IMG/VR virus record: IMGVR_UViG_3300031857_000014
Length of the DNA: 64,000 nucleotides
Source: a virus
Lineage: Duplodnaviria; Caudoviricetes
Direction: 5' to 3' (one strand)
The notes beneath the pieces are model-generated. The model made no database searches, was not told the origin of the DNA, and was given only the letters and a program-made list of their open reading frames with translations. The position numbers and the translations under genes were made by a program. Each line of letters begins with the position of its first letter. Position 1 is the first letter of the stretch. Shown here piece by piece: positions 35,748 through 36,584 of the stretch.

Positions 35748-35837
35748 TAAGATTTTTTATTTTTAAAATTTATTTCCTATATTTTTATTAGTTCTTTGAA
35801 ATGCCTGGGTGGTGAAATAGGTATACACGCAAGACTT

Positions 35838-36532
35838 TAATCTTTTTTGTGTTCTGTTTATACTTATAATATATGAATATAAAATACACAAAAGAATTTT
35901 TGGAACCAATAGTTAAGGAATGTGGTTCAATTAGACAAGTTTTAATAAAACTAGGGTTGAGAGAAGCAGGAGGAAATTATGAAAATATCAAAACTAGAAT
36001 TCAATTATTCGGTATTGATACATCACATTTTCACGGAATGGTTTGGAATAAAGGTAAAGAGTGGTCAAAAGTTAAGGATTTAACTCCTAAATTAATAGAA
36101 CACTCAACTTACACTACAGGATTACCAACCTCAACAAATAGATTGAGAAAACAATTATTAAAACTTGGATATAAAAACCACATTTGTGAATTATGTGAAT
36201 TAACTGAATGGAGAGGAGAAAAAATCCCATTGGAGTTACATCACATAAATGGTAATAGGTTTGATAATAGGATAGAAAACTTACAATTTTTATGTCCGAA
36301 TTGTCACTCATTTACTGACAACTATAGGAAACGAAAAAATTGAGTGCACAAAGAGAAATCTTTGATGTAGAACTCCGTAAATTCGGTGAACCCTTTAAGA
36401 TGGGAATACCGAGCCAAACTCGTAAGAGAAGGTGTAGAGACTAGACACGGAGCACCTAAATCGTAAGATATGGTGAAGGTATAGTCCAGACCACAAACAA
36501 CTTTAGTTGGTAGTGAAAACTATAGTGGTAAG
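35838..36532 (+). mobile_element. Group I intron (similar to the tRNA-Leu IC3 type) with an HNH ORF in the P1 loop
   Basis: Exon ACUU pairs with internal guide GAGU (36342-36345, U.G at the splice site); P AAATTCGGTGAA, Q AATACCGAGC, P3 CTCCGT/ACGGAG, P7 GACTA/TAGTC; terminal G at 36532. Confidence 0.9.
35873..36343 (+). CDS. HNH homing endonuclease (intron-encoded)
   Basis: CELCELTEWRGEKIPLELHHINGNRFDNRIENLQFLCPNCHS. Confidence 0.92.
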   Translation: MNIKYTKEFLEPIVKECGSIRQVLIKLGLREAGGNYENIKTRIQLFGIDTSHFHGMVWNKGKEWSKVKDLTPKLIEHSTYTTGLPTSTNRLRKQLLKLGYKNHICELCELTEWRGEKIPLELHHINGNRFDNRIENLQFLCPNCHSFTDNYRKRKN

Positions 36533-36584
36533 AAAATCTTGTGACCAGCAATGGTCGTGCGGGTTCGACCCCCGCCCCAGGTAC

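Follow-up and report, generated by a model that had tools for sequence, protein, structure and literature searches.

The tRNA-Leu(UAA) gene of cyanobacteria and plastids harbours a group I intron (Xu et al. 1990 and Kuhsel et al. 1990, as cited in PMC11878797). The notation Leu.3Ug is used for its class, as in Naz2.Leu.3Ug, and the intron database places this class in subgroup IC3 (Williams 2020, bioRxiv 10.1101/2020.01.27.920355). The same study recorded 5292 tRNA introns in 80,413 bacterial assemblies and stated that those longer than about 400 bp 'may contain' genes; it covered bacterial and archaeal assemblies only, with no phages, and did not characterise the open reading frames (ORFs). 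The element described here is found in a phage. The window, a stretch of 64,000 nucleotides (nt) from a virus of the Caudoviricetes (IMG/VR record IMGVR_UViG_3300031857_000014), contains a tRNA-Leu(UAA) gene split by an insert that holds a gene for a putative HNH homing endonuclease. It is proposed, with a probability of about 0.8, that this insert belongs to the classical tRNA-Leu(UAA) class of group I introns (Leu.3Ug, IC3 type) and is a mobile element residing in a phage tRNA gene.

Other described systems share parts of this arrangement. The tRNA-fMet gene of Synechocystis contains a group I intron with an intron-encoded endonuclease (Bonocora and Shub 2001, listed as reference 105 of PMC3984707), and I-HmuI of phages SPO1 and SP82 is an HNH enzyme that nicks its target (Landthaler et al. 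2004, reference 77 of the same source). According to PMC3984707, every phage intron known by 2014 lay in a protein-coding gene, despite the many tRNA genes of phages, and reasons for this have been offered there. Intron ORFs that reach into core sequence are tightly controlled, as in the delayed translation of I-TevI (PMC3984707), and the extension of an ORF into the core together with translational repression is the subject of 'Better late than early' (Gibb and Edgell 2010, reference 35 of PMC3984707). Collaborative homing and endonuclease invasion have been put forward to explain how endonucleases and introns come together (Zeng, Bonocora and Shub 2009; Bonocora and Shub 2009; references 72 and 76 of PMC3984707).

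When introns are allowed, ARAGORN calls a tRNA-Leu(taa) with a 695-nt intron at position 36; in its default mode it reports four other tRNAs in the window and misses the split gene. Joining 35803-35837 to 36533-36584 in silico gives an 87-nt type-II tRNA-Leu(UAA) with a long variable arm, a first acceptor pair G1.U72 and a discriminator A73 that corresponds to A36583, a molecule of the bacterial tRNA-Leu type. The 5' exon (35803-35837, on the plus strand, as are all features given below) comprises the acceptor 5' strand, the D arm, the anticodon-stem 5' strand and C32, U33 and U34; its 3' end reads CAAGACUU, with U34 at 35837 as the last base. The 3' exon (36533-36584) opens with AAAAUCUUG, its first base being 36533, and supplies A35, A36, A37 and A38, the anticodon-stem 3' strand, the long variable arm, the T arm, the acceptor 3' strand and the discriminator. 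From these exon ends it follows that the insertion lies between U34 and A35, and that the intron occupies 35838-36532. In an alignment of the window with 43 diverse homologues (44 sequences), in which pairs were counted for a structure set on window coordinates, GACUU at the end of the 5' exon and AAAAUC at the beginning of the 3' exon are invariant, and pairing in the anticodon stem is 100%, three of its five pairs showing compensatory changes. A preliminary description had placed the intron after U34 of the anticodon, as both the exon ends and ARAGORN confirm, and its span of 35803-36583 for the gene holds with a small correction: the acceptor 3' strand runs to 36582 and A36583 is the discriminator, CCA not being encoded.

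On the evidence of its sequence, the insert is a group I intron. Its 695 nt (35838-36532) end in the omega-G, G36532, and are assigned to class Leu.3Ug on the basis of an Rfam match, the homologue alignment and the pair counts; the intron separates position 34 of tRNA-Leu(UAA) from position 35, the base at -1 being U and that at omega being G (CUU/...G/AAAA). The IC3 label is taken from Williams' statement on the class, and the likeness to cyanobacterial introns is one of site and features rather than of direct alignment. Helix P1 is formed by A35834-U36345, C35835-G36344, U35836-A36343 and the wobble U35837.G36342, of which the CUU:GAG part, including the U.G at the 5' splice site, is invariant in 44 of 44 sequences, and the fourth pair is A-U in 32 of them. 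The internal guide (36340-36345) combines the P10 strand UU (36340-36341), facing A36533 and A36534, with the P1 strand GAGU (36342-36345), facing A35834-U35837. P10 is paired in about 91% of cells, a count that is weak evidence, as the exon begins with four A and a one-column slide leaves the pairing unchanged.

Beyond P1, a P2 hairpin with a GAAA loop (36347-36367) precedes the catalytic core (36373-36486), which is made of P3 (36373-36378/36447-36452), P4 (36383-36388/36407-36412), P5, P6 and P6a with a GUAA loop, P7 (36439-36443/36482-36486) and P8 (36453-36456/36472-36475); P9 (36491-36528, 95% paired) carries the sub-hairpins P9a (36498-36509) and P9b (36510-36523, with a GAAA loop). Compensatory double changes are seen at 8/8 pairs of P2, 6/6 of P3, 3/3 of P6a, 3/4 of P8 and 5/5 of P9b. 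P3, P4, P6, P7, P8 and P9b are 98-100% paired (P4, P6 and P7 99-100%), a proportion that falls to 20-52% when the partner strand is slid by one column (20-56% over the slid controls as a whole), and the strands of P7 are invariant or nearly so. The terminal GUAAG and the whole GUAAG/AAAAUC 3' splice junction are invariant as well, and RNAalifold independently gives the same nested helices. Chance is excluded by the invariant CUU:GAG, P7 strands and terminal GUAAG, together with the covarying P2, P3, P6a, P8 and P9b. The core that had been described as intact is so, the conserved P3-P9 set with its P3/P7 pseudoknot having the support of covariation, and the terminal G36532 lies in the invariant GUAAG.

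The HNH gene (35873-36343, 156 amino acids) lies in loop L1 and ends with the stop codon UGA at 36341-36343. Its placement is read from the alignment, in which window and ORF-less introns correspond base for base on either side of a single insertion of about 490 nt, with the first few bases of the intron before it and the conserved UUGAGUGC after it; without the ORF, the gene shares 83-85% identity over its full length with four ORF-less viral alleles (L119, L107, L070 and L088; L numbers denote the loci compared). The claim of an ORF of about 500 nt looped out of P1 is thus upheld, and so is the overlap of its stop with the guide: the first base of the UGA closes the P10 strand and the other two open the guide GAGU, within a conserved UUGAGU. 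The same UGA is present in ORF-less introns, so that the ribozyme itself supplies the stop codon of the HNH gene.

Profile matches, invariant residues, substitution rates and a structural model all bear on the identity of the protein. It matches HNH_3 (PF13392) with 26.0 bits, above the cutoff of 24.8, and phrog_10822 ('HNH endonuclease') at 8e-45. In an alignment of 22 intron-borne HNH homologues with a mean column identity of 37%, the residues C105, C108, E121, H124, G127, N136, C141, P142, N143, C144 and H145 are invariant, which include the H-N-H triad (H124, N136 and H145) and two CxxC zinc pairs (C105/C108 and C141/C144). The ratio of nonsynonymous to synonymous substitution (dN/dS), estimated by the Nei-Gojobori method against the three closest relatives, is 0.15-0.2, and by this measure the gene is under purifying selection. 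The AlphaFold (AF2) model, with a mean confidence score (pLDDT) of 82, shows three helices in its N-terminal part and, in its C-terminal part, a beta-hairpin and a helix, the strands being formed by residues 121-124 and 137-140 and the helix by 142-145. The predicted enzyme looks functional. No match was returned by a PDB sequence search with the protein, and no paralogue was found within the window. The GC content of the ORF (29%) is in line with that of the phage (32%). UUA is its commonest leucine codon (12 of 18), and synthesis of the endonuclease therefore depends on the tRNA species that its own intron interrupts, although this use of UUA may be no more than the codon usage of an AT-rich phage.

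The element in the window is one of many. IMG/VR and the GTDB species genomes were scanned for a signature running from the P7 strand to the 3' splice site, which was found in at least 120 viral contigs of the former and in at least 120 bacterial contigs of the latter, belonging to Alpha- and Gammaproteobacteria, Acidobacteriota, Planctomycetota, Bacilli and many Bacteroidota. The following counts hold among the matches listed. A tRNA-Leu(UAA) gene is split at the same site in 193 of 243 loci, and the intron exceeds 400 nt in 54 of the 220 split genes mapped, about a quarter; 46 of these 54 long introns hold the HNH family of the window, in at least three internal arrangements. The gene lies in sense orientation in L1 at 14 loci, including the window, the viral relatives L061, L051 and L055 (76%, 70% and 69% amino acid identity of the HNH protein to that of the window) and chromosomal copies in Chitinophagaceae and Lewinellaceae (L165, L198 and L175). 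In at least eight further loci it lies in sense in the P5/P6 region; in L001 (LR756511.1, a 595-kb phage), unclassified in the automated tally, direct reading puts it in P6. It is antisense in 9-12 long introns, and at about 24 additional loci a copy stands free, no more than 600 nt away from an ORF-less intron, to which it may be upstream, downstream or convergent. To our knowledge, the published cyanobacterial and plastid tRNA-Leu introns are ORF-less. The earlier statement that the intron normally lacks an ORF is therefore correct for those introns and does not extend to the present set, in which about a quarter are long and most of the long ones carry the HNH family.

Some of these arrangements deserve a word of their own. 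Nine seemingly ORF-less long introns (L140, L152, L137, L209, L210, L228, L153, L083 and L013) have the HNH gene on the opposite strand, between P4 and P7, and antisense endonuclease genes within a ribozyme pose an expression problem of their own. On a Sediminibacterium-type chromosome, a complete free-standing HNH gene of 145 amino acids (L204:1179-1616) begins 55 nt after a tRNA with an ORF-less intron, and the free-standing copies of L226, L240 and L181 are 76-81% identical to it. This chromosomal layout looks like a collaborative-homing pair.

The nearest relatives of the ribozyme itself are chromosomal. In a FastTree tree of 151 ribozyme cores, the closest neighbours of the window are L132, L181, L179 and L204, about 84% identical to it over intron and 3' exon. 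These introns stand in a housekeeping context on Sediminibacterium-type Bacteroidota chromosomes, next to genes for tRNA-Gly, a class-III aminotransferase, an HtrA-like protease and MazG, and this shared synteny rules out that L132, L179 and L204 are misbinned phages. That the nearest cores are those of Bacteroidota chromosomes points to a possible exchange between phage and host. Discordant histories of ribozyme and HNH gene were also considered; the core is 82-83% identical to phage introns of the L1 class and 84% identical to host introns, a difference too small to decide the matter. A megablast search of window positions 20000-44000 against 50,697 phage records gave no match, and the phage is without a close sequenced relative among them.

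Empty counterparts of the site are also common. An intron-less anticodon arm, 19 nt identical to the ligated exons of the window, occurs in at least 120 viral contigs, among them L336 and L256, two relatives of this phage with conserved synteny, in which tRNA-Leu(UAA), a small membrane ORF, tRNA-Arg(UCU) and further tRNAs are followed by GOLLD; their tRNA-Leu(UAA) is uninterrupted, 87 nt long, and identical to that of the window at 73-74 of 87 positions without gaps, so that window and relatives can be read as a clean filled-site/empty-site pair. They were reached through the intron-less anticodon-arm pattern, a search for relatives with the upstream ORF 35217-35744 having confirmed none. The phage contigs with the same intron and HNH gene, L061, L051 and L055 among them, share no flanking homology with the window. 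Mobility is supported by the empty-site relatives, by the unshared flanks, by the tight linkage of the HNH family to this intron, and by the dN/dS and invariant motif of the endonuclease, and the intron of the window is probably active as a mobile element.

It could be argued that the intron splices and is no longer mobile, with the HNH protein a relic or a co-opted maturase, and with intron-less alleles that reflect intron loss or vertical polymorphism. Homing endonucleases often decay once all alleles are occupied (PMC3984707), and several long bacterial introns lack a long sense ORF. However, the ORF of the window is intact and its dN/dS is low against all three relatives, a maturase would need neither the H-N-H residues nor the four zinc cysteines that are invariant in 22 homologues, intron-less targets exist in at least 120 viral contigs, and most of the 'ORF-less' long introns among the matches listed carry the HNH gene on the opposite strand. 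An immobile intron is for these reasons considered unlikely.

Another possibility is that the endonuclease acts mainly as a weapon, cutting the uninterrupted tRNA-Leu(UAA) of rival phages or of the host and thereby excluding their markers, the intron being a means of self-immunity. The free-standing HNH genes beside ORF-less introns (about 24 loci among the matches listed), where the intron would confer immunity on behalf of its neighbouring gene, fit such a role, as does the presence of related introns in hosts of the same phylum. Exclusion by intron endonucleases has reportedly been established for other phages by Goodrich-Blair and Shub (1996). This role is nevertheless compatible with homing, both outcomes arising from the same cleavage event, and the occurrence of the cassette across contigs without shared flanks is what homing predicts, which leaves a primary function as a weapon quite improbable. 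That the split gene is a pseudogene or an assembly artefact from which no tRNA is made can hardly be entertained, even if the default tRNA finder and the whole-window Rfam scans miss it, given that both exons are intact and join into a canonical tRNA, that the ribozyme keeps every conserved element, and that this architecture is met again in assemblies made independently from many samples.

Several observations weigh against the proposal of a mobile group I intron. The check with Infernal group I models suggested in the preliminary description came out only in part: the Rfam model Intron_gpI (RF00028) matches 36280-36509 in a 1-kb scan (E 8e-10), whereas its score of 44.3 bits stays under the gathering score of 50, and the match is absent from both whole-window Rfam scans, the E-value scan included. 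P1 consists of only 4 bp, with a 2-bp P10, and its strands are 504 nt apart; an extended P1 between the U-rich intron start and the A-rich last codons was rejected, its -9.4 kcal/mol comparing with -7.5 for shuffled sequences (z = -0.9). As for the protein, its match to PF01844 (20.8 bits) is under the cutoff of 21.4, and the best Foldseek matches of the model in the PDB, mostly HNH nucleases (McrA, Cap5, ScoMcrA and the GVE2 HNH protein), are weak, with a best E of 0.03. The intron-less alleles of L336 and L256 could reflect precise loss rather than gain. The hairpin at the HNH start codon, discussed below, reaches a z of only about -2.4 and is weak in L051 and L071. Finally, splicing, translation and DNA cleavage are all deduced rather than observed.

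The shortfall in the Rfam score is attributed to the split P1: as the real P1 is divided by the ORF, the model misplaces its own P1 into coding sequence, and the low score was not taken to exclude the insert from group I introns. An ORF-less homologue, L002 (LR756501.1, a 735-kb metagenomic phage), aligns with the core of the window and scores 56.6 bits, above the gathering score; a joint Rfam scan of L001, L002 and L003 returned nothing at E <= 0.001, though L002 alone reaches that score. The search filters, and not the RNA itself, are responsible for the matches lost in the whole-window and joint scans.

The proposed mechanism for the mobile intron is as follows. A precursor tRNA transcript of about 782 nt would fold into the ribozyme, a step deduced from its structure, and the guide GAGU (36342-36345) would bridge the 504-nt loop of P1 to pair with the ACUU in which the 5' exon ends. 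A guanosine would then attack after U35837, G36532 would next occupy the G-binding site in P7, and P10, formed by UU with AA, would position the 3' exon for a ligation that yields the 87-nt tRNA-Leu(UAA) reading UUA. The zinc-bound HNH protein of 156 amino acids would most likely nick or cut an uninterrupted tRNA-Leu(UAA) gene near the GACUU/AAAAUC sequence of the anticodon loop, and recombinational repair from the intron-bearing copy would spread the intron and flanking markers, either in co-infection or between phage and host.

Expression of the endonuclease may be fitted to splicing, for which the evidence is modest. The last codons of the ORF are at the same time the P10 and guide sequence of the ribozyme, so that a terminating ribosome and P1 formation would be mutually exclusive. 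All seven L1-class ORFs that were read closely end in the guide or in P2: the ORFs of the window, L071 and L078 stop at the guide UGA, those of L061, L055 and L005 within the P2 loop, and that of L051 at the 3' end of P2. As a terminating ribosome covers P10, P1 and P2, translation and recognition of the 5' splice site would exclude each other on any one molecule; and since no upstream exon is translated in a tRNA gene, the only ribosomes on the precursor would be those making the HNH protein. At the other end of the gene, the first 58 nt of the intron are predicted by RNAfold to form a hairpin that pairs the AUG (35843-35895), with an outer stem 35843-35852/35886-35895 and inner stems 35857-35862/35878-35883 and 35864-35868/35872-35876, at -12.9 kcal/mol against -7.2 +/- 2.4 for shuffles. 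Equivalents in L055, L061 and L005 have changed stem sequences and keep complementarity. This hairpin would have a regulatory role, probably holding translation low until after splicing, as described for I-TevI in the T4 td intron. From the ORF ends and the recurring start hairpin, both circumstantial support, we infer a coupling of translation to splicing. Promoter control was considered as well: a late-promoter-like TTATAATA, comparable to a motif near 41084, stands 1 nt before the AUG and is too close to serve that start codon, and a sigma-70 scan found sites no more frequent than in shuffles, upon which the idea of a promoter was dropped.

A broader proposal may be put forward tentatively, and it could well prove wrong. 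The 'ancient, vertically inherited' tRNA-Leu(UAA) intron might be the ribozyme half of a living mobile system, in which one HNH family, free-standing or in various loops and on either strand, would drive its spread through tRNA-Leu genes, those of phages as well as those of many bacterial phyla, and jumbo phages rich in tRNAs would be the shuttles; the form with the ORF in the P1 loop would be a splice-or-translate switch built from the guide overlap and the start hairpin.

Related introns occur in other phage genes. A viral tRNA-Leu(CAA) (L007:4541-5403) is split at the same position, with C instead of U before the 5' splice site (GGACUC|...), and carries the HNH gene. It resembles the Leu.3Cg type, which Williams (2020, bioRxiv 10.1101/2020.01.27.920355) reported from Proteobacteria only and whose splicing that study questioned. 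Introns of about 205-213 nt are found in the anticodon loop of three phage tRNA genes, namely tRNA-Arg(CCU) of Microcoleus phage My-WqHQDG (L003:1313-1598; annotated without comment as a 286-nt tRNA-Arg in GenBank OR578706), tRNA-Arg(UCU) (L066:12957-13238) and tRNA-Met(CAU) (L089:5874-6154). The first matches the 3' part of the window intron by blastn, the first two carry the P7 motifs of its family, and some of these short-intron genes adjoin a tRNA-Leu intron. Blastn searches with the core also give matches within a capsid gene of Pelagibacter phage HTVC120P (MH598807.1), near endonuclease VII in Ralstonia podophages, and in crAss-like phages, the records matched besides MH598807.1 being MF979559.1 and relatives, MT774389.1 and OQ198718.1. 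These matches suggest that related ribozyme cores may also reside in protein genes of cultured phages. In the window, the split gene is followed by a cluster with tRNA-Arg(UCU) at 36966, tRNA-Asp at 37928, tRNA-Glu at 38368 and tRNA-Met at 38550, and downstream of it by a full-length GOLLD RNA (RF02032, 326 bits, 39817-40220) and a transfer-messenger RNA (tmRNA; RF00023, 102.5 bits, 48677-49094).

The intron class, its site, phage introns with HNH genes, a tRNA intron with an endonuclease (that of Synechocystis tRNA-fMet) and collaborative homing are known already. In the literature searched, nothing published since that review describes a phage tRNA gene with a group I intron (PMC3984707 being the review), and such an intron, the combination of one HNH family with Leu.3Ug in many arrangements, and a stop codon embedded in the guide all appear unreported there. 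Phage tRNA genes do carry introns, and the earlier rule reflects detection: the intron of the window is found only by a focused 1-kb Rfam scan or by ARAGORN with long introns allowed. As default tRNA finders and whole-window Rfam scans miss the gene, counts of phage tRNAs and arguments on codon usage are biased, and inventories of phage tRNAs are probably too low. One HNH family lying beside an intron class and at several places inside it is a natural series that matches the stages of endonuclease invasion, and it offers a short and easily assayed substrate. Phage-borne copies that carry the endonuclease and have their closest relatives on host chromosomes provide a concrete sideways route for the tRNA-Leu intron, for which vertical against horizontal descent in cyanobacteria and plastids is a matter of long-standing debate. 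The overlap of ORF and guide where no exon is translated makes a clean system in which to study the competition between translation and ribozyme folding.

Compared with the cyanobacterial and plastid intron, the intron of the window has the same gene, the same site CUU/AAAA, as had been claimed and as the Leu.3Ug class of Williams (2020) bears out, the U.G at the 5' splice site, the terminal G and a compact P1-P9 core without P5abc; it differs in belonging to a phage gene and in a P1 loop that contains an intact HNH gene ending as the guide. The intron of Synechocystis tRNA-fMet interrupts another tRNA at another site, and its host is a cyanobacterial chromosome, whereas that of the window is a phage. 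The Synechocystis endonuclease belongs to another family and is not known to be an HNH protein. With the I-HmuI introns of SPO1 and SP82 and the td intron of T4 encoding I-TevI, the element shares a phage-borne self-splicing intron, here a predicted one, that has an endonuclease ORF in one of its peripheral loops; the genes interrupted by those introns all encode proteins, unlike the tRNA gene in which the present one lies. The collaborative-homing model proposes two stages, one with the endonuclease gene standing alone next to an ORF-less intron and one with a member of that family housed within the intron, and both are seen for this HNH family and this intron. In the published cases the genes involved are cyanophage psbA and a T-even phage gene; here, with the target of the free-standing copies presumed, it is a tRNA gene, and the series spans both phages and bacterial chromosomes.

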